A stretch of DNA of 58,758 bases from Candidatus Woesearchaeota archaeon (GTDB lineage Archaea; Nanobdellota; Nanobdellia; SCGC-AAA011-G17; JACPIM01): positions 1 through 58,758 of the forward strand of contig CAYWEX010000005.1 in assembly GCA_964457785.1 (NCBI GenBank). The letters run 5' to 3'. Under the pieces are notes generated by a model, which was given only the letters and a program-made list of their open reading frames with translations, was not told the origin of the DNA and made no database searches. Within the stretch, counting starts at the first letter, position 1, and each line of letters opens with the position of its first letter. Positions 9,834-53,575 of this stretch are shown one piece after another. The position numbers and the translations under genes were made by a program.

Positions 9834-9869
9834 AGATCAAGGGCTTTTATGGGGATTTATAATATTTTT

Positions 9870-9878
9870 GATTTATAT
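9870..9878. repeat. target-site duplication of element 1, left copy (GATTTATAT; right copy 11170-11178)
   Basis: identical 9-mer directly outside both inverted repeats; 10 bp if the adjacent T is counted. Confidence 0.9.
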
Positions 9879-9966
9879 GGCTTTGCACATAAATTCAAAT
9901 TTAAGAAATCTTTAAAATAAATCCGTAAACTTTTCGGTGTTTATTACTTTATAATTAAACAACAAG

Positions 9967-10030
9967 TTATATATAAATTTCACTGGACAAATTCACTGGA
10001 CATTTCGTGGACCTGCCTATCGCTTATAAA
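9967..10030 (+). promoter_or_regulatory. two TATA-like boxes flanking 13-bp-period direct repeats upstream of tnpB
   Basis: TTATATATAAA 9967-9977; TTCACTGGACA at 9979 and 9992 plus a degenerate third; CTTATAAA 10023-10030; same layout at 24238-24301. Confidence 0.5.
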
Positions 10031-10056
10031 TAAAATTGTCTTTTTCTTATTTTAAT

Positions 10057-11136
10057 ATGAAAAAAGAGATAAAATTAACCAAAGTAATCAAAGCATCTGT
10101 AATTAATCTAACTAATAGAAAGAGAGATTTATTGGATAATGATTATAATAATTATCAGTGGTGGATGATATTTGGTGTTGATAATGGATTATTAAGTTGT
10201 TTTAAAGCAGCAAAAGGATGGAAACAGGAAAAAATCAAATATAAAAATTACTCGTTACCATTATGGTCTTCTTTGATTAAAGACTGGTTTAGAAAAAGAA
10301 AAACTAAATTAACTGAAGACTGGATTAAGATTCCCTGCAGCAAAAGAAAAGGGCAGGGTTTATGGTTGCCATTAAAATTTCATCAAAAACTACCTGAAAA
10401 ATACAAATTAAAAGATTCTTTTCTAGTTAAAAAGAATGACAAATACTATATTTATTTCACAATAGAATTAGATTGTCTTAAGTTGTATAAACCTAAAGAA
10501 GTAATTGGAATAGACTTAGGATTAAAAAATCCAGTTACTTTAGTAAATATCAATAATAAACAAACTAAATTCTTAGGAAGAGAATTAAAGAAAGTTAAAG
10601 GCAAATATTATTATTTAAGAAAGAAGTTAGGACAAAGCAAGAATTTAAAACAAATCAAGAAAATTAGAAATAAAGAGAAGAGAAAGATTAATTCTATATT
10701 GCATACCTTATCAAAGGCCATTATACTAGAAGCTTTTAACAATAAATCAGCTATTGTAATTGGAAAATTAAAAGATTTAAAGAAAAATAAGGGAAGGAAG
10801 TTTAACAGAAAGTTATCTACTTTTTCATATTATCAGTTTACCAAGTTTTTAGAATATAAATCTCAACAATTAGGTATTCCATTCATAAAAGTAAATGAAG
10901 CATATACAAGCAAGACCTGTAGTGTTTGTAACAGTCCAGGTACTAGAATAAAGAATTGGTTTAAGTGTAATACATGTGATTATGGAGATAATGCAGATAG
11001 AAATGCTGCAATAAATATAGGAAAACGGGGTTCAAGCTATATGTTTGGATCAGGGGCAAATGCTTTTGCCCAGAAGCCTATCCAGAATAGGCAAGCACAA
11101 CCATTTAATAATTTGAAAAACAAACAAATTTTGTAA
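10057..11136 (+). CDS. tnpB: TnpB-family RNA-guided endonuclease, compact, rearranged RuvC-II
   Basis: VIGIDLG (RuvC-I), IVIGKL, VNEAYTSKTC, CxxC..CxxC, NADRNAAINI (RuvC-III); start set to ATG 10057 by homology to the second copy. Confidence 0.93.
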   Translation: MKKEIKLTKVIKASVINLTNRKRDLLDNDYNNYQWWMIFGVDNGLLSCFKAAKGWKQEKIKYKNYSLPLWSSLIKDWFRKRKTKLTEDWIKIPCSKRKGQGLWLPLKFHQKLPEKYKLKDSFLVKKNDKYYIYFTIELDCLKLYKPKEVIGIDLGLKNPVTLVNINNKQTKFLGRELKKVKGKYYYLRKKLGQSKNLKQIKKIRNKEKRKINSILHTLSKAIILEAFNNKSAIVIGKLKDLKKNKGRKFNRKLSTFSYYQFTKFLEYKSQQLGIPFIKVNEAYTSKTCSVCNSPGTRIKNWFKCNTCDYGDNADRNAAINIGKRGSSYMFGSGANAFAQKPIQNRQAQPFNNLKNKQIL

Positions 11137-11189
11137 ATTTGTTATAATTGTTAATTTATGTGCAAAGCTGATTTATATAGAAGAAGTAG
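11042..11189 (+). ncRNA. predicted omega-RNA scaffold plus flank-derived guide, element 1
   Basis: hairpins 11054-11071, 11076-11092, 11123-11143; 60 nt (11042-11101) identical between the two copies; boundaries inferred. Confidence 0.55.
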
Positions 11190-17011: not shown

Positions 17012-17527
17012 ATGAAATCTAAAGAAACAATTAATAATCCAATTATTCCAAATGGTGAAATGAATCTTGTTAGATCTGACGAAAGAAGAAAATTAGAAGA
17101 TATTTTTCATAGACTAGCTGAAGGCGGAAAAAAACCAATTTATGGTGAAAGAGATCATGCTAAATTTGAAGGCTGGTTTTACAGAATAGAATATGATTTT
17201 TGGAGAGAAACTCCAGATTCTCCTGAAAATGTGGAAATACTTTCTTTTGATGGAGATGAAGAATTTGGATTTAGACATGGATCTGAATTGCAAGATTCCT
17301 GGAAATTAATGTTTAATTATCATATAAGAAGAGCTTATTTCGAAGAAAGTATGAATTTCTTAAGAAGTTTAGATTTAGATATTGCAAGAACACTAATTGA
17401 TAGAGATTTATGGTCTCAAGCAGATGAAAAAAATACTGTTGTTTCAACAAGCATATCAATTCCAAATTTTAATGAGATTTATCAATTTATAAAAGAACAT
17501 ATAGATTATACAATAAAAAAACACTAA
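17012..17527 (+). CDS. orphan protein A1 (paralog of 32757-33278)
   Basis: shared KLEDIFH, YGER.HAKF.GW, IRRAYFEESM.FLR, RDLWSQADEKNTVVST, YT.KKH. Confidence 0.85.
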   Translation: MKSKETINNPIIPNGEMNLVRSDERRKLEDIFHRLAEGGKKPIYGERDHAKFEGWFYRIEYDFWRETPDSPENVEILSFDGDEEFGFRHGSELQDSWKLMFNYHIRRAYFEESMNFLRSLDLDIARTLIDRDLWSQADEKNTVVSTSISIPNFNEIYQFIKEHIDYTIKKH

Positions 17528-18067
17528 TTATAATTCATCATGCGTAACTATAGCTTCAAATTTTATTTTTTTCTTTTCTTTGTCCCAGCTATAAATTATT
17601 CTTAAATTATCATCTAGTCTAGCATGATAACGTTTTTTCCAATTTCCTTCTTTTAAAAATTCATGCAATTTTTTCTGATAAACAGGAGATTCTAAAATTC
17701 TTTTTTCTACAGTTTGAATATTTTTATCAGGATATCTTAAACAATCAGTTTTATATCTATCGCTTCTACTAACATCCTCTTTTAAATTAATGTCCAAATA
17801 ATTTTTATGAGTTTCTCTAAATTTTGAGATAAAAGGTAAGAATTCTTCTAAATATTTTTTTATTTTATTTTGATCTTTTATAACTAAAAGTTCTTTAGCC
17901 TTTTTTTCTATATTGAATTTTAAATTACTATCTTCTATTTTTTCACAAAAAAGCACAAGATCTGAAAAAGTATTATAAATAAACTGAGAGTCATTTATTT
18001 TATTTTTTGCTAATTTAATAACATTTTCAAGAATCACCAAATTTTTGTTATCGTTTTCTGAAAGCAT
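17528..18067 (-). CDS. protein B1: helical N-domain plus C-terminal RelE/ParE-like domain (paralog of 32206-32760)
   Basis: C-terminal HARLDDNLRIIYSWD..IKFEAIVTHDEL resembles the RelE fold; fold call by eye. Confidence 0.65.
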   Translation of the reverse strand: MLSENDNKNLVILENVIKLAKNKINDSQFIYNTFSDLVLFCEKIEDSNLKFNIEKKAKELLVIKDQNKIKKYLEEFLPFISKFRETHKNYLDINLKEDVSRSDRYKTDCLRYPDKNIQTVEKRILESPVYQKKLHEFLKEGNWKKRYHARLDDNLRIIYSWDKEKKKIKFEAIVTHDEL

Positions 18068-24097: not shown

Positions 24098-24159
24098 AAT
24101 GAAGTAAAGTAACATAAAAAAAGTAAGCTAGAAAATTATATAAATGTCGTTTAATAACT

Positions 24160-25435
24160 GGCTTTGAACATTAAATTCAAAATTAAAATAAATCCGGAAA
24201 CTTTCCGGAGTTTATTACTTTATAATTAAACAACAGGTTATATATAAATTTCACTGGACAAATTCACTGGACATTTCAGGGACCTGCCTAGTGCTTATAA
24301 ACAAATTAGTCTTTTTCTGATTTTAATGAAAAAAGAGATAAAATTAACTAAAGTTATCAAAGCTTCTGTAATAGATTTAACTAAAAATAAAAAAGAATTA
24401 TTGGATAAGGATTATAATAATTATCAATGGTGGATGATATTTGGTATTGATAATGGATTATTATCTTGTTTTAAAGCAGCGAAAGGATGGAAACAAGAAA
24501 AGATAAAATATAAAGAATATAGTTTACCATTAGAATCAAGGTTTATTAAAGACTGGTTCAGGAAAAGAGATACTAAACTAACTGAAGACTGGATTAAGAT
24601 TCCTTGCAGCAAAAGAAAAGGACAGGGATTATGGCTTCCATTAAAATATCATCAGGAATTGCCTGACAAATATACTTTAAAAGATTCCTTTTTAGTAAGA
24701 AAGAATGATAAATATTATATTTATTTCACAGTAGGGGTAGATTGTCCTAAATTGTATAAACCAAAAGAAGTAATTGGAATAGACTTAGGACTTAAAAACC
24801 CAGTTACTTTGGTTAATATTAATAATAAACAAACTAAGTTCTTGGGAAAAGAATTGAAGAAAGTTAAAGGAAAATATTATTACTTAAGAAAGAAGTTAGG
24901 ACAAAATAAAAATCTTAAACAAATAAAAAAGATAAGAAACAAGGAAAAAAGAAAGATTAATTCTATATTGCATACTTTATCCAAAGCAATTGTATTAGAA
25001 GCTTATGATAATAAATCAGCTATTGTTATAGGAAAATTAAAAGACTTAAAGAAAAATAAAGGAAGAAAGTTTAACAGAAAGTTATCTAATTTCTCCCATT
25101 ATCAATTTACTAAATTCCTAGAATATAAATCTCAACAATTAGGTATTCCATTCATAAAAGTAAATGAAGCATATACTAGCAAGACCTGTAATGTTTGTAA
25201 CAGTCCAGGTATAAGAATAAAGAATTGGTTTAAGTGTAATACTTGTAATTATGAAGACAATGCAGACAGAAATGCTGCAATAAATATAGGAAAACGGGGT
25301 TCAAGCCATGTGTTTGGATCAGGGGCAAATGCTTTTGCCCAGAAGCCTATCCAGAATAGGCAAGCACAACATTTAATAATTGAAAAATAAACATATTTTG
25401 TAAATTGTTTAATATATTAATTTATGTGCAAAGCT
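24160..25435 (+). mobile_element. non-autonomous TIR element 2 carrying tnpB
   Basis: left end GGCTTTGAACATTAAATTC, right end AATTTATGTGCAAAGCT, TSD TTAATAACT at 24151-24159 and 25436-25444; interior homologous to element 1. Confidence 0.9.
24326..25390 (+). CDS. tnpB: TnpB-family RNA-guided endonuclease, compact, rearranged RuvC-II (copy 2)
   Basis: D153, G236, E281, D314, zinc finger C288/C291/C304/C307; about 34 aa differences from copy 1 by manual alignment. Confidence 0.93.
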   Translation: MKKEIKLTKVIKASVIDLTKNKKELLDKDYNNYQWWMIFGIDNGLLSCFKAAKGWKQEKIKYKEYSLPLESRFIKDWFRKRDTKLTEDWIKIPCSKRKGQGLWLPLKYHQELPDKYTLKDSFLVRKNDKYYIYFTVGVDCPKLYKPKEVIGIDLGLKNPVTLVNINNKQTKFLGKELKKVKGKYYYLRKKLGQNKNLKQIKKIRNKEKRKINSILHTLSKAIVLEAYDNKSAIVIGKLKDLKKNKGRKFNRKLSNFSHYQFTKFLEYKSQQLGIPFIKVNEAYTSKTCNVCNSPGIRIKNWFKCNTCNYEDNADRNAAINIGKRGSSHVFGSGANAFAQKPIQNRQAQHLIIEK

Positions 25436-25455
25436 TTAATAACTTTATTTAATCA
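25323..25455 (+). ncRNA. predicted omega-RNA scaffold plus guide, element 2
   Basis: hairpins 25323-25340, 25345-25361 and TAAACA/TGTTTA 25388-25411; boundaries inferred. Confidence 0.55.
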
Positions 25456-25469
25456 AAAAGGGGAAATTT

Positions 25470-27635
25470 ATGAGAATTAGTTTAAAAAAGAGCTTATTTA
25501 AAAAAATATTATTTCTTTTTATATTCATATTAATAATAAATTCTGTTTCTGCAGCTACTATTATTGATTTTTTTAGCGAGAAATTTTATCAATTTTACAA
25601 TAAGAATGATGGGAATTTAATTACTGGAAATGTAGTTGTAAATGGTGCCTTAACTATCCAGAAAAATGGAATTGGAAATATAAACTCAAATGTTCTTGGA
25701 ATGACTTGCGATAATGCTAGATGTATAGGAGATTTCAATCAAGATGTATTTGTTACATTAACTGTTACTTCAGATCAAACATCTACGTTTACGGGATGGA
25801 GCACTTCTTCAATTACATGCGCTCCAGGTAATTCAGATTGTTCCTGCAGCGGAACGCAAAGTCCATGTTTTATCCATTTCATATCAACCCCAATAACAAT
25901 ATCTGCTAATTTTCAAAATTCAAATGCTGGTGGTGGGTCTGGAGGAACAAATAATAATCTTAAGTTAGAGATAAAAAGAGGAACAAGTACACCACCAACA
26001 GAAATAGCTGAAACAAAAGAGTGTACAATTAGTAATACTAACTTAGAATGTATAAGCAACAATAATTGGGAAGATTTAGTTAATACAATTCATTCTGGTC
26101 GTGAGGTGAAGGCTTCTTTTATGCAGAGTGCTGGTGATTCATTTATAATTGAAAAATTATTTATTGGAAGTAATGAAATTAAAAATTGTGTTCAACAAAC
26201 TTTTTGTGCAATATCACCTTCTCTTAATAATCAAGGTTTAATAAAAGCCAAATTAGTATCAAGAAGCCCTGGTAGTGGAAGTACATCGACAATCCCAAAT
26301 CTTAAATTAGAAATAAAAAAGGGACAAAATTTTCCATTAACAGTTGTTGAAACAAAAGATTGTACAATTAGTAATAGTAATTTAGAATGTGTGAGTAATG
26401 GCAATTGGGAAACTATAAGTTCTGAGCAATTGCCTAATTATGAAGTGAAGGCTTCTTTTATGCAGAGTGCTGGTGATTCATTTATAATTGAAAAATTATT
26501 TATTGGAAGTAATGAAATTAAAAATTGTGTTCAACAAACTTTTTGTGCTGAAACACCACTTCTTCCCCCAACAAATACTGGAAAAGTAAAGGTTAAATTA
26601 TTACCTAGAAGTCCTAGTGGTTCTGGTGGTGGTGGGGCAACTCCTTGTAATGTCCCTGCTGATTATAATTGTGGTGCTTGTGGGATTAATGGAGTTAATA
26701 CATGTACAAAAAAACAAGGAATAACTTGTTTAGGCAGTGATCAAATAACGTGTGCAACAGGAACTGGAGGAGGAAATACTGGTGGAACGGGAATAGGTAC
26801 TGGAGGTACTGGATCTGGGACTGTTGGATCTGGAGACTGTATAAATTCATTACCTTCAGATAAACAAAATATTTTAGAAGGAATTATCAAATGCTGGGAA
26901 AAATATACTACTACCTGTTTAAATGTAATAGATCCTGTTACAAATAAAAAATGCAGTGATAAAAAATTTGGAGAGAAAAATATATGTAAAAGAGATTGCA
27001 GAGTTAGTATCAGAGATTGTTTAACAAAATGCAGAGAAGATTTTATAGAAAAATCAAGACTGGCAGGATCTTCTGGAACTGGATCTTCAGCTGGTGGTGG
27101 ATCAACAAGCGGATCTGGATCAGGTACTGGCGGTTCTGGAACAGGAACTGGTGTGACTGGGACTGGCGGCGGAAATACAGGAGCTGGAACTAGTACTGTT
27201 GAATTAATGGAAGCTGAAGATGCAACAAAAGTAAGGATAACAGAAAATAATCAAAATGACGGTTTTAGAATAGAACACTATACTTTTGAGGGTGCAACTT
27301 CTTTAAAAAATATTAATGAAAATGATATGTTTTCAATTTCTTATAATGTTCCACAAAATGGAAATTATGAATTAAAAGTAAGAACTTGGAGAGGCCTTTC
27401 TGGAACTCCCGAACTTATAGTAAAAGTAAATAATAATGAAGTTGGCAGAATAGGAATTGCACAAACACAAAATGGTGGATTGGGATTAAATTTTGCTGAA
27501 TATAAATTAAACAATATTGCTTTAAATCAAGGTGTTCAAAATATAGAATTAAAAGTAAATAGTGCGGGTTCATCAATACAGGGTGGATTTGGACTTTTTT
27601 TAATTGACTGGATTAAAATTACAAAGATTTCATAA
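25470..27635 (+). CDS. large secreted surface protein with Gly-rich linkers, duplicated Cys domain and C-terminal CBM6/35-like module
   Basis: signal peptide, B-repeat-like TLTVTSD..FTGW, 113-aa tandem repeat, MEAEDA..GNYELKVR..IDWIKI. Confidence 0.8.
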   Translation: MRISLKKSLFKKILFLFIFILIINSVSAATIIDFFSEKFYQFYNKNDGNLITGNVVVNGALTIQKNGIGNINSNVLGMTCDNARCIGDFNQDVFVTLTVTSDQTSTFTGWSTSSITCAPGNSDCSCSGTQSPCFIHFISTPITISANFQNSNAGGGSGGTNNNLKLEIKRGTSTPPTEIAETKECTISNTNLECISNNNWEDLVNTIHSGREVKASFMQSAGDSFIIEKLFIGSNEIKNCVQQTFCAISPSLNNQGLIKAKLVSRSPGSGSTSTIPNLKLEIKKGQNFPLTVVETKDCTISNSNLECVSNGNWETISSEQLPNYEVKASFMQSAGDSFIIEKLFIGSNEIKNCVQQTFCAETPLLPPTNTGKVKVKLLPRSPSGSGGGGATPCNVPADYNCGACGINGVNTCTKKQGITCLGSDQITCATGTGGGNTGGTGIGTGGTGSGTVGSGDCINSLPSDKQNILEGIIKCWEKYTTTCLNVIDPVTNKKCSDKKFGEKNICKRDCRVSIRDCLTKCREDFIEKSRLAGSSGTGSSAGGGSTSGSGSGTGGSGTGTGVTGTGGGNTGAGTSTVELMEAEDATKVRITENNQNDGFRIEHYTFEGATSLKNINENDMFSISYNVPQNGNYELKVRTWRGLSGTPELIVKVNNNEVGRIGIAQTQNGGLGLNFAEYKLNNIALNQGVQNIELKVNSAGSSIQGGFGLFLIDWIKITKIS
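26106..26548. repeat. 104-bp identical intragenic direct repeat
   Basis: 26106-26209 equals 26445-26548 (339-bp period). Confidence 0.9.
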
Positions 27636-32205: not shown

Positions 32206-32760
32206 ATGCTTTCAGATAATGATAAAAAGAAATTAAAAGATATCAAAAAAGGCCTTAAATCTATTGAAGCAAATCTGGATAATTTGGGTTTTGTTTACAA
32301 GGTTGCTAGTAATTTATTTAGAATTTCAGATAACTTAGAAGATAATAATCTAAAATCAAATATAAAATGTGAATTAACAAAAATTACTCAAACACAATAT
32401 AAGGAAGAAATTCAACAAAAAGTGCTATCTATTTTTACCTTAATTTCAGAAGCAGAGAAAATGCAAAATATAAAGAGATATTTTCAAAATCCTTCTATAA
32501 AGAAAACTGAAGAATATGAAGAAGATTGTAAAAGCCATTCTAATTTAAAAAAGAATATTGAAGAATTAGAAAAAAAGATAATAAAGTCAGAAACTTATCA
32601 AGAAAATCTTCATGAAAAAATGAAACAGGGAGTAAGATGGAAAGATCATCTTCATGCACGATTAACAGGTAATTTAAGACTGATGTATATTTGGGATCCA
32701 GAAACAAAATTACTTACATTTAAAGGAATTATTACTAAAAATGAATTAGAAAAAGATTAG
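32206..32760 (+). CDS. protein B2: helical N-domain plus RelE/ParE-like C-domain
   Basis: MLSDNDKK start; HARLTGNLRLMYIWD..LTFKGIITKNEL; paralog of 17528-18067. Confidence 0.65.
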   Translation: MLSDNDKKKLKDIKKGLKSIEANLDNLGFVYKVASNLFRISDNLEDNNLKSNIKCELTKITQTQYKEEIQQKVLSIFTLISEAEKMQNIKRYFQNPSIKKTEEYEEDCKSHSNLKKNIEELEKKIIKSETYQENLHEKMKQGVRWKDHLHARLTGNLRLMYIWDPETKLLTFKGIITKNELEKD

Positions 32761-33278
32761 TGCTTTTTTACAGTATACCTTATAGATTCTCTTATAAATA
32801 GATATATTTCATTAAAACTTGGAATTTTTATGTGTGTTGAAACAACAGTATTTTTCTCATCTGCTTGAGACCACAAATCTCTTCTAATTAAAGTATGTGC
32901 GATTTGTAAATCTAGAGTTCTTAAGAAATCCATACTTTCTTCAAAGTAGGCTCTTCTTATTGTATAGTCAAGTGTTGGCTGTGATTCTTTTAACTCATTT
33001 CTAAAAGAAAATTCTTCATCCCCTTCAAAGCTAAGTATTTCAGCATCTTTTGGGTCTTCATCTGTTTCTTTCTTCCAAAAATCATATTCGACTTTATAAT
33101 GCCAGCCATCAAATTTAGCATGTTTTCTTTCACCATAAACTTCTTTCTTTCTATATCTAGCTAATTTATGAAAAATATCTTCTAATTTTAACATAGATTT
33201 TGGATCAACTTTTTCCATTCTTCTATTTAATCCATTAGAACTATTAATACTTTTGATAGGACTTAGTTTAATTTTCAT
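32757..33278 (-). CDS. orphan protein A2 (paralog of 17012-17527)
   Basis: same conserved blocks as A1; 4-bp stop overlap with B2. Confidence 0.85.
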   Translation of the reverse strand: MKIKLSPIKSINSSNGLNRRMEKVDPKSMLKLEDIFHKLARYRKKEVYGERKHAKFDGWHYKVEYDFWKKETDEDPKDAEILSFEGDEEFSFRNELKESQPTLDYTIRRAYFEESMDFLRTLDLQIAHTLIRRDLWSQADEKNTVVSTHIKIPSFNEIYLFIRESIRYTVKKH

Positions 33279-51394: not shown

Positions 51395-51472
51395 TTCGGA
51401 AGATTTCCGGATTAGCCGGAAAGTTTACGGATTTACCGGAAGATTTACGGAATTGAATTTATGTGCAAAGCC
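51395..51472 (-). mobile_element. solo left end of the tnpB TIR element family
   Basis: 51453-51472 is the exact reverse complement of 9879-9898; preceded by three tandem 20-nt CCGGAA..TTT(A/C)CGGA units. Confidence 0.8.
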
Positions 51473-53450: not shown

Positions 53451-53575
53451 TGGGCCCGATCAGATTTGAACTGACGACCTTTGGCTTTCTTAGATATGTA
53501 TGTTAGAGTGCCATATAAGACTTGCACAACTTCAATTGAAGTTACAATGCTCTAACCAGGCTAAGCTACGGGCCC
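53451..53575 (-). tRNA. tRNA-Ile(UAU) with two BHB introns (29/30 and 37/38)
   Basis: exons 53575-53545, 53521-53514, 53486-53451 give a 75-nt cloverleaf with anticodon TAT and A73; both introns form BHB motifs. Confidence 0.88.

Follow-up and report, generated by a model that had tools for sequence, protein, structure and literature searches.

A TnpB element with IS5-type inverted repeats in a DPANN archaeon carries a putative omega-RNA scaffold that runs to the transposon end

Elements of the IS200/IS605 type are defined by the absence of inverted repeats and of a target-site duplication, by a Y1 transposase (TnpA), and by insertion 3' of a motif of 4 to 5 nucleotides (nt). Their TnpB protein reportedly works with an omega-RNA (also called reRNA), as is said to have been described for ISDra2 and others by Karvelis and by Altae-Tran in 2021. 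TnpB also occurs on transposons of the DDE type. Six DDE-associated branches with inverted terminal repeats have been catalogued (Altae-Tran et al., PNAS 2023; PMC10691335); in these, the 3' end of tnpB lies at most 250 bp from the transposon end, and solo TnpBs share their ends with transposase-bearing elements (PMC10691335). The branches were catalogued without analysis of RNA structure, target-adjacent motif (TAM) or target (PMC10691335; PMC13565253), and we found no published description of any of the three for prokaryotic DDE-associated TnpB elements. According to a 2026 review, it is an open question why such OMEGA systems are rare on DDE transposons of prokaryotes and what their rationale is (PMC13565253). 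The difficulty is that cut-and-paste excision already leaves a break and that a variable duplication complicates the logic of TAM and guide. Here we describe a tnpB element of this kind in a 58,758-nt stretch of DNA (the window; contig CAYWEX010000005.1) from a Candidatus Woesearchaeota archaeon. The 3' end of the element is highly likely to specify a guide RNA whose last structural strand is supplied by the terminal inverted repeat (TIR).

The host is a DPANN archaeon, as indicated by a tRNA with a presumed intron and by its nearest relatives, which are metagenome-assembled genomes (MAGs) of Woesearchaeota/Nanoarchaeia. Its genome (G000; 802 kb, 29% GC, 19 contigs) holds three copies of the element, two of them in the window. 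Coordinates without a contig prefix are those of the window.

9879-11169 (+): copy A, whole element, 1,291 bp, with tnpB as the single gene
9879-9895 (+): left TIR of copy A, GGCTTTGCACATAAATT; the same ends occur on a 6.9-kb DDE element, on miniature inverted-repeat transposable elements (MITEs) and at homologous loci
10057-11136 (+): tnpB of copy A, 359 aa from the ATG at 10057, stop at 11136
11024-11169 (+): omega-RNA-like scaffold of copy A; 127.4 bits, E = 1.9e-30 with covariance model R1, also supported by minimum free energy (MFE) and covariation
11153-11169 (+): right TIR of copy A, AATTTATGTGCAAAGCT, in which AAGC (11165-11168) is the 3' strand of a pseudoknot
24160-25435 (+): copy B, whole element, 88% identical to copy A
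24326-25372, 25293-25435 and 25419-25435 (+): tnpB, scaffold (120.3 bits with R1) and right TIR of copy B
C3:67534-68832 (-): copy C, on another contig

A sequence-only reading of the window had pointed to 60 nt at 11042-11101, inside tnpB, that are identical between copies A and B and hold the hairpins GGGCAAA/TTTGCCC and GCCTAT/ATAGGC. It had also noted a third stem that keeps pairing despite sequence change (AACAAATTT/AAATTTGTT in copy A, TAAACA/TGTTTA in copy B). All of this was borne out, the stems being P2, P3 and P5b below. Across copies A, B and C, no invariant run of the element exceeds the 59 nt of 11042-11100, and the second longest measures 31 nt. The copies differ at 1 to 3 of the 78 nt in 11024-11101 versus about 13% in the remaining open reading frame (ORF; Fisher p = 5e-4 to 0.018). 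Conservation ends at the TIR, as proposed, with an exact stop at 11169 in copy A and at 25435 in copy B. The conserved block is real, but its start had been placed 18 nt too late: both MITE homology and covariance-model matches begin with AACGGGG at 11024 rather than at 11042. Helices P1 and P4 and the pseudoknot between the P2 loop and the TIR had been overlooked. Thus, we assign the scaffold to 11024-11169, a stretch that is GC-rich within a 29% GC genome and very probably serves the element's own TnpB.

A conserved stretch within an ORF could simply reflect purifying selection on the TnpB C terminus or recent gene conversion, and copies A and B alone share a second identical run of about 58 nt in the RuvC region. 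This explanation is barely plausible. Since tnpB-less MITEs keep the scaffold, its conservation is not a coding constraint. Moreover, substitutions across 36 loci compensate within pairs rather than being codon-synonymous, and the stretch retains rare GC-rich codons (CGG, GGG, GCC) although the genome is AT-rich.

Homologous loci were gathered via the TnpB protein from genome contigs and metagenome contigs (271 TnpB homologues, E < 1e-10). Model R1, with five helices, was built from 20 aligned 3' regions and then searched back. The search returned 38 matches (36 distinct rows), all of them at a tnpB 3' end or in MITEs. The structure, which the model supports, comprises the following parts in copy A.

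11029-11037 with 11043-11051 (+): P1 hairpin, loop 11038-11042; 99.4% of cells paired, 7/9 pairs changed on both sides
11054-11059 with 11066-11071 (+): P2 hairpin, loop GCUU at 11062-11065; 98.1% of cells paired
11076-11092 (+): P3 hairpin, GCCTAT/ATAGGC; 97.6% of cells paired, 6/6 pairs changed on both sides
11095-11099 with 11159-11163 (+): P4, GCACA with TGTGC in the TIR; 97% paired, 3/5 pairs compensatory
11105-11113 with 11146-11154 (+): P5a, variable, enclosed by P4
11123-11131 with 11135-11143 (+): P5b, enclosed by P4; 7/7 pairs compensatory
11062-11065 with 11165-11168 (+): pseudoknot, GCTT of the P2 loop with AAGC of the right TIR end; paired in 100% of rows

P1 lies inside the ORF, and the only differences between copies A and B in this region (11038 and 11041) fall in its loop. 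In the 36 rows of alignment A4, which was fitted to the model, 93.4% of pair cells were paired (range 93-95%) versus 21.9-46.1% when partners were slid by 1 to 3 columns. Both sides had changed in 25 of the 34 pairs (25-26 compensatory), covariation was seen in all five helices, and the family-wide values were reached by none of 500 shuffles. In the P2 loop, GCUU changes only in those rows in which the TIR end covaries with it. Only two variants of the pseudoknot were found, both compensatory (ACUU/AAGU in L103 and UCUU/AAGA in L023 and L116), and there were no exceptions, although its columns are unpaired in R1. Because the pseudoknot uses the TIR end, the functional RNA should reach at least 11168, and the target-site duplication would therefore come next.

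Copy A folded alone into the same structure as the covariance model (MFE -41.2 kcal/mol, z = -3.65). In 29 of 30 scaffolds the fold of the sense strand was the more stable one (mean -46.2 vs. -33.8 kcal/mol for the antisense strand, p = 6e-6), which argues for an RNA with the polarity of tnpB. These data bear on the idea that conservation acts on DNA, either through subterminal transposase-binding sites or through vestigial right-end hairpins of an IS200/605 element. The TIR itself is certainly a DNA signal, and TGTGCA(A/G) repeats, which in many relatives make up the 5' strand of P5b, are subterminal in the 6.9-kb element. We nevertheless consider this very unlikely. Besides the strand asymmetry of folding, G-U pairs are abundant (34 of 36 rows, for example, have GU at pair 7-27), and the distance of P1 to P3 from the end, 80-145 nt, is unusual among IS5-type ends. 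A DDE element with the same ends also lacks P1 to P3: in the own genome, R1 matched only copies A, B and C and a MITE, leaving the 6.9-kb DDE element unmatched. The scaffold is thus not needed by the transposase.

MITEs of 234-324 bp that lack tnpB were found in several genomes, with the scaffold and the duplication retained.

C3:10388-10704: MITE of the own genome, 316 bp, with the 9-bp duplication AATTTTAAT

This 316-bp MITE keeps exactly the last ~146 nt of the element, from AACGGGG on, with other bases in the stems: P3 is GTTCAT/ATGAAC instead of GCCTAT/ATAGGC, and P5b is ATTGGTT/AACCAAT. A second MITE copy in the own genome is split across two contig ends. Directly 5' of the scaffold start, purine-rich GAAGG repeats (such as AAAGAAGGCAGGAAAAGAAGGAAAA) are present in three MITEs from different genomes (C3:10388-10704, L221 and L222); they could be a processing or promoter-proximal signal.

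Were the structure a cis-acting 3' element of the tnpB mRNA (a terminator, stabilizer or translational regulator) and the flank no guide, its position at the gene's 3' end and its GC-richness in this genome would be explained. However, MITEs keep it with no gene to regulate, and five helices, a pseudoknot and conserved single-stranded joints far exceed the needs of a terminator. Canonical TnpB elements also have a homologous RNA at their 3' end, and the scaffold shows a weak, co-linear match to the Rfam family IS605-orfB-II. We therefore judge an mRNA element to be unlikely.

The homology to canonical elements was seen in distant relatives (35-45% protein identity), in which R1 matched with 19-38 bits at the tnpB 3' end. 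Pairs between the P2 loop and the 3' end covary there (UUGACAC/GUGUCAA, GUGAAC/GUUCAC, GUGACC/GGUCAC), and in L031 and L036 a Y1 TnpA-like ORF lies directly upstream of tnpB. Because it covaries in these IS200/605-type relatives, the pseudoknot topology is ancestral; in the present element its 3' strand has been replaced by a DDE-type TIR end. Together with covariation, the pseudoknot, the sense-strand fold and the MITEs, the shared P1/P2/pseudoknot core upholds the initial proposal of an omega-RNA-like scaffold that begins inside the 3' end of tnpB and continues across the right TIR. Since the pseudoknot topology would end the scaffold at the element end, as in the canonical relatives, it is reasonably likely that the guide starts at the duplication (11170). 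The predicted templates are as follows.

11170-11189 (+): predicted guide template of copy A, right duplication copy (11170-11178) plus 11 nt of flank
25436-25455 (+): predicted guide template of copy B, right duplication copy (25436-25444) plus flank

The tnpB product was identified as TnpB by Pfam PF07282 (8.7e-22) and NCBIfam NF040570 (178.9 bits, cutoff 100). Residues D153, E281 and D314 and the zinc-finger cysteines (CxxC...CxxC) are invariant in 40 sequences. In RuvC-II, a Gly occupies the canonical Glu position, and alignment with PDB profiles places an alternative Glu within VNEAYTS. Upstream of the gene we noted a further module.

9912-10056, core 9972-10048: region upstream of tnpB with two TATA-like boxes, two to three copies of TTCACTGGACA, and GGACCTGCC

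With 79-97% identity, this module is found again in other parts of the genome, where it precedes seven or more unrelated ORFs (C1:8492, 13285, 70633 and 114177; C12:27182; C6:34946; C3:62380), often with CCGNAAACTTTNCGG-like motifs; it looks like a shared regulated promoter module. An IscB-like upstream RNA in the conserved stretch 9972-10048 was ruled out, as the module is common to at least seven unrelated genes.

The ends of the element define its carrier. Each of the copies A, B and C starts with GGCTTTGCACATAAATT and ends with AATTTATGTGCAAAGC-T; the extra T at the right end is position 11169 in copy A, and a terminal T is present in 29 of 30 tnpB-type ends. A perfect 9-bp direct repeat surrounds all three copies, and inverted repeats of about 17 bp with a 9-bp duplication were found in at least 14 elements.

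9870-9878 and 11170-11178 (unstranded): left and right duplication of copy A, GATTTATAT
24151-24159 and 25436-25444 (+): left and right duplication of copy B, TTAATAACT
C6:35812-42742 in G000: 6.9-kb element with the same termini as the tnpB element and the 9-bp duplication AAAACAACA

The duplication of copy C is CTTCTTAAA. Orthologous sites are unoccupied in three congeneric genomes, with the repeat region present as a single copy (in G001 for the site of copy A), showing that the copies are genuine insertions with target-site duplications. A T before the left duplication in three of the own-genome copies suggested a 10-bp duplication. This was ruled out: the MITE, L022 and the 6.9-kb element fit 9 bp only, and C is found at position -1 in 10 of 25 sites. 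In MAG JACQNI01, neither L024 nor L073 has a matching pair of duplications of its own; instead, the left duplication of one (CTTTTATGA) recurs as the right duplication of the other, which indicates recombination between two element copies and hence a genome rearrangement.

The 6.9-kb element carries a BsaWI-like restriction enzyme, an N6/N4 DNA methylase, a DUF2779 protein and two unknown ORFs. Its transposase is of the DDE_Tnp_1 type and scores 147.7 bits with NCBIfam NF033579 (IS5 family; cutoff 140). A bacterial comparator, an IS5-family element on a Klebsiella plasmid, has GGCTTTGTTGCACAA ends and a 9-bp duplication. By its GGCTTTGCAC ends and 9-bp duplication, the carrier of tnpB is a non-autonomous, IS903-like element of the IS5 family. 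It shares with IS5/IS903-like insertion sequences and their MITEs the GGCTTTG... ends, the duplication length and the link to a DDE_Tnp_1/NF033579 transposase. It differs from them in its passenger, which is tnpB with the RNA, or the RNA alone, in place of a transposase, and in its strongly site-specific and orientation-specific insertion. The likely partner in trans is the DDE transposase of the 6.9-kb element in the same genome. Among 240 genomes of the order, the scaffold was found in 21, the transposase in 47 and both in 9 (odds ratio 3.6, p = 0.009).

The insertion specificity was evident from 25 independent insertion sites, comprising tnpB elements, MITEs, two solo ends and the 6.9-kb element.

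9856-9869 (+): left-flank motif of copy A, TTTATAATATTTTT; its last four bases are the candidate TAM
24137-24150 (+): left-flank motif of copy B, TATATAAATGTCGT

Directly 5' of the duplication, the 25 sites share the consensus T-W-T-A-T-A-A-A-S-S-T-T-N-Y, with T(-12) in 25, A(-9) in 24, T(-4) in 22, T(-3) in 23 and Y(-1) in 24 of them. The duplication sequence itself is uninformative, and MITE sites added later show the same left-flank motif. The motif is already present in the unoccupied orthologous sites of congeneric genomes and is thus a property of the target rather than of the element. Its position is always on the tnpB-upstream side, in tnpB elements and MITEs alike. The place 5' of the left end is the classical target/TAM position of IS200/605 elements, and distant IS200/605-type relatives have TTAC directly before their left end; the TTNY of the present family looks like a relaxed TTAC. 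The initial reading, which compared two sites, had concluded that the TAM may be minimal, or else not coupled to insertion specificity. This is not supported by the 25 sites, in which the flank is strongly conserved: copy B is simply the worst match, and TTNY resembles TTAC and stands exactly where a TAM is required if the guide starts with the duplication. That TTNY is indeed the TAM, coupled to insertion, falls in our estimate a little short of an even chance.

The full motif (T[AT]TA[AT]AAA[GC][GC]TTN[CT]) occurs 40 times in G000 versus about 8 expected from base composition, by our own rough estimate, and its commonest form is TATAAAGCTTTY. It may be the strong-promoter consensus of the lineage and at the same time a pool of potential insertion sites. 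ORF starts follow TWTAWAAA-SS-TTNY in 20 of 40 cases versus 72 of 206 controls and are not clearly positioned.

These data suggest how the parts could act together. The tnpB transcript would read through the right TIR, and TnpB would retain the scaffold plus ~16-20 nt of flank (the duplication and the right flank) as a guide. The ribonucleoprotein would then recognize an unoccupied site, in which TTNY as the TAM is followed by a single duplication copy and the right flank, and cut it; recombination with an occupied copy would restore the element at the cut site. Such an empty site could result from DDE excision or lie on another genome copy. At an occupied site, the right end would be spared, having AGCT without the TT before the guide match, and so would the left junction, where only 9 nt match. 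MITEs would supply guides to TnpB made in trans. This combination of scaffold, TIR read-through, flank as guide and empty-site cutting is the best explanation of the locus as a whole, and we consider it probable.

Several points weigh against it. No Rfam family matches at threshold, and IS605-orfB-II (RF02998) reaches 17.9 bits against a gathering score of 88 (E = 1); this match is co-linear and on the same strand (11010-11151), and by Rfam's criterion the RNA is a nonmember. The percentage paired is inflated by the fitting of A4 to the model, from which the pseudoknot columns were exempt; the margin over the slid controls is large nonetheless, and P1 and P2 are part of coding sequence. The pseudoknot covariation amounts to two events. 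Cut-and-paste DDE transposition leaves a break and not a sealed donor, so that the benefit of homing is less obvious than for IS200/605. The remaining points concern the motif. Position -2 is uninformative, and copy B has TCGT. The same left-flank motif lies beside five TnpB-less relatives (the 6.9-kb element and four other autonomous ones), and its upstream half resembles an archaeal TATA box, so that target choice by the transposase alone may explain it.

This last possibility would leave the scaffold real and make the left-flank motif nothing but a target preference of the IS5-type transposase for TATA-box/promoter DNA, perhaps bent by TBP/TFB. The TAM of TnpB would then be different or very relaxed, or empty sites would not be acted on. 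At the TnpB-less relatives, the motif always lies at the end nearest the 3' end of the transposase gene. Most of its information is in TWTATAAA, 7-14 nt from the duplication, and its excess in the genome fits promoter DNA as well. As for real promoters, a co-oriented host ORF follows the right end after 34 nt in copy B (start 25471) and after 16 nt in copy C, and its start lies at most 50 nt downstream at ~12 of 32 sites, a comparison made without a proper control. Yet the conserved T(-4), T(-3) and Y(-1) abut the duplication at the place required of a TAM, where the distant relatives have TTAC, and the bases before the guide match at the right end are AGCT, which departs from TTNY precisely at the two conserved Ts. 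Moreover, a single orientation to the motif is common to all tnpB elements and MITEs. Both ends of autonomous relatives were sought for an orientation comparison with the transposase alone, but the ends were too diverged or cargo was carried. We give a transposase preference unrelated to the TAM a substantial minority chance.

Returning to the guide-RNA explanation, we tentatively extend it to a history of the family, which we hold to be possible, though on balance doubtful. A prokaryotic DDE (IS5/IS903-like) lineage would have captured the TnpB of an IS200/605 ancestor and rebuilt its omega-RNA, such that the transposase TIR now doubles as the guide-proximal pseudoknot strand. Insertion, in a single orientation, would be aimed 6 nt downstream from an archaeal TATA box; TTNY as the TAM would keep insertion specificity and empty-site recognition coupled despite the 9-bp duplication; the captured host TATA box may drive the RNA; and the RNA-only MITEs of 234-324 bp would ride on TnpB in trans.

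In comparison with IS200/605 omega-RNAs such as that of ISDra2, the predicted RNA likewise extends from within the 3' part of tnpB to the right end of the transposon, has a scaffold of several helices with a pseudoknot immediately ahead of the guide, and is accompanied by a conserved left-flank motif; with the IS200/605-type archaeal relatives it shares the homologous P1/P2/pseudoknot core. In contrast to these, a DDE-type inverted repeat at the right end supplies the pseudoknot strand, and the 9-bp duplication makes the first nine predicted guide bases identical to the duplicated target. The element itself is outside the IS200/IS605 definition, having inverted repeats and a duplication and no Y1 or serine transposase. 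The RNA lies on the tnpB sense strand, overlaps the ORF 3' end up to the element end and has a covarying structure, and the RuvC residues of the protein are kept. In every computationally testable respect, the predicted RNA is like a TnpB omega-RNA.

With the DDE-associated TnpB branches the element shares the inverted repeats, a tnpB 3' end close to the transposon end (33 nt) and solo copies with the ends of a transposase-bearing element; these solo elements are presumably mobilized in trans. Fanzor systems, on the TIR transposons of eukaryotes and giant viruses, are similar in that an RNA-guided TnpB homologue resides on DDE elements with TIRs and duplications (PMC10530073; PMC13565253). Their omega-RNA likewise runs into the right inverted repeat, and the relocated RuvC-II Glu of the present protein is of the TnpB2/Fanzor2 type. 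Here, however, the protein is prokaryotic, with 359 aa, and the duplication is long (9 bp) and variable. In Fanzor structures, a short 3' duplication lies in the scaffold (PMC13565253); the long and variable duplication of the archaeal element cannot be part of a fixed scaffold or TAM.

DDE-associated TnpBs as such are already known from the 2023 catalogue. New here are an RNA backed by covariation, the overlap of TIR and pseudoknot, RNA-only MITEs and a TATA-like, orientation-specific target with a TTNY edge. The family offers a small system that is open to testing: its TnpB has 359 aa and a relocated Glu, its RNA has ~146 nt and the TIR as its 3' pseudoknot strand, and there are natural RNA-only MITEs, reconstructable empty sites and a clear-cut target motif. 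It illustrates the refitting of a guide RNA to a new transposon end, and it may provide a small nuclease with an AT-rich TAM as well as an example of promoter-targeted insertion in archaea.

Some further observations were made in the window. The inner right TIR (TTAATTTATG; 11150-11169 and 25416-25435) is itself TATA-like and, compared with the displaced host TATA box, stands ~4 nt more distant from the host sequence downstream. As an outward promoter, it might restore expression of a gene whose promoter was split by the insertion (in copy B, the ORF starting at 25471). A solo left end at 51456-51472 (-) is identical to the element TIR and is preceded by the target motif (ATATATAAACCTTGC plus TATAACAAA); CCG-repeat motifs and a 58-aa ORF follow within ~400 nt, and a right end was not found. 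An inverted duplication of ~440 nt links 17089-17528 and 32756-33189, ~15 kb apart, with 81-82% complementarity. A scan of the whole window at Rfam gathering thresholds detected two tRNAs only, and a permissive scan added sub-threshold matches only. At 53451-53575 (-), a tRNA gene of 125 nt is found by Rfam and missed by ARAGORN, and presumably bears an intron.

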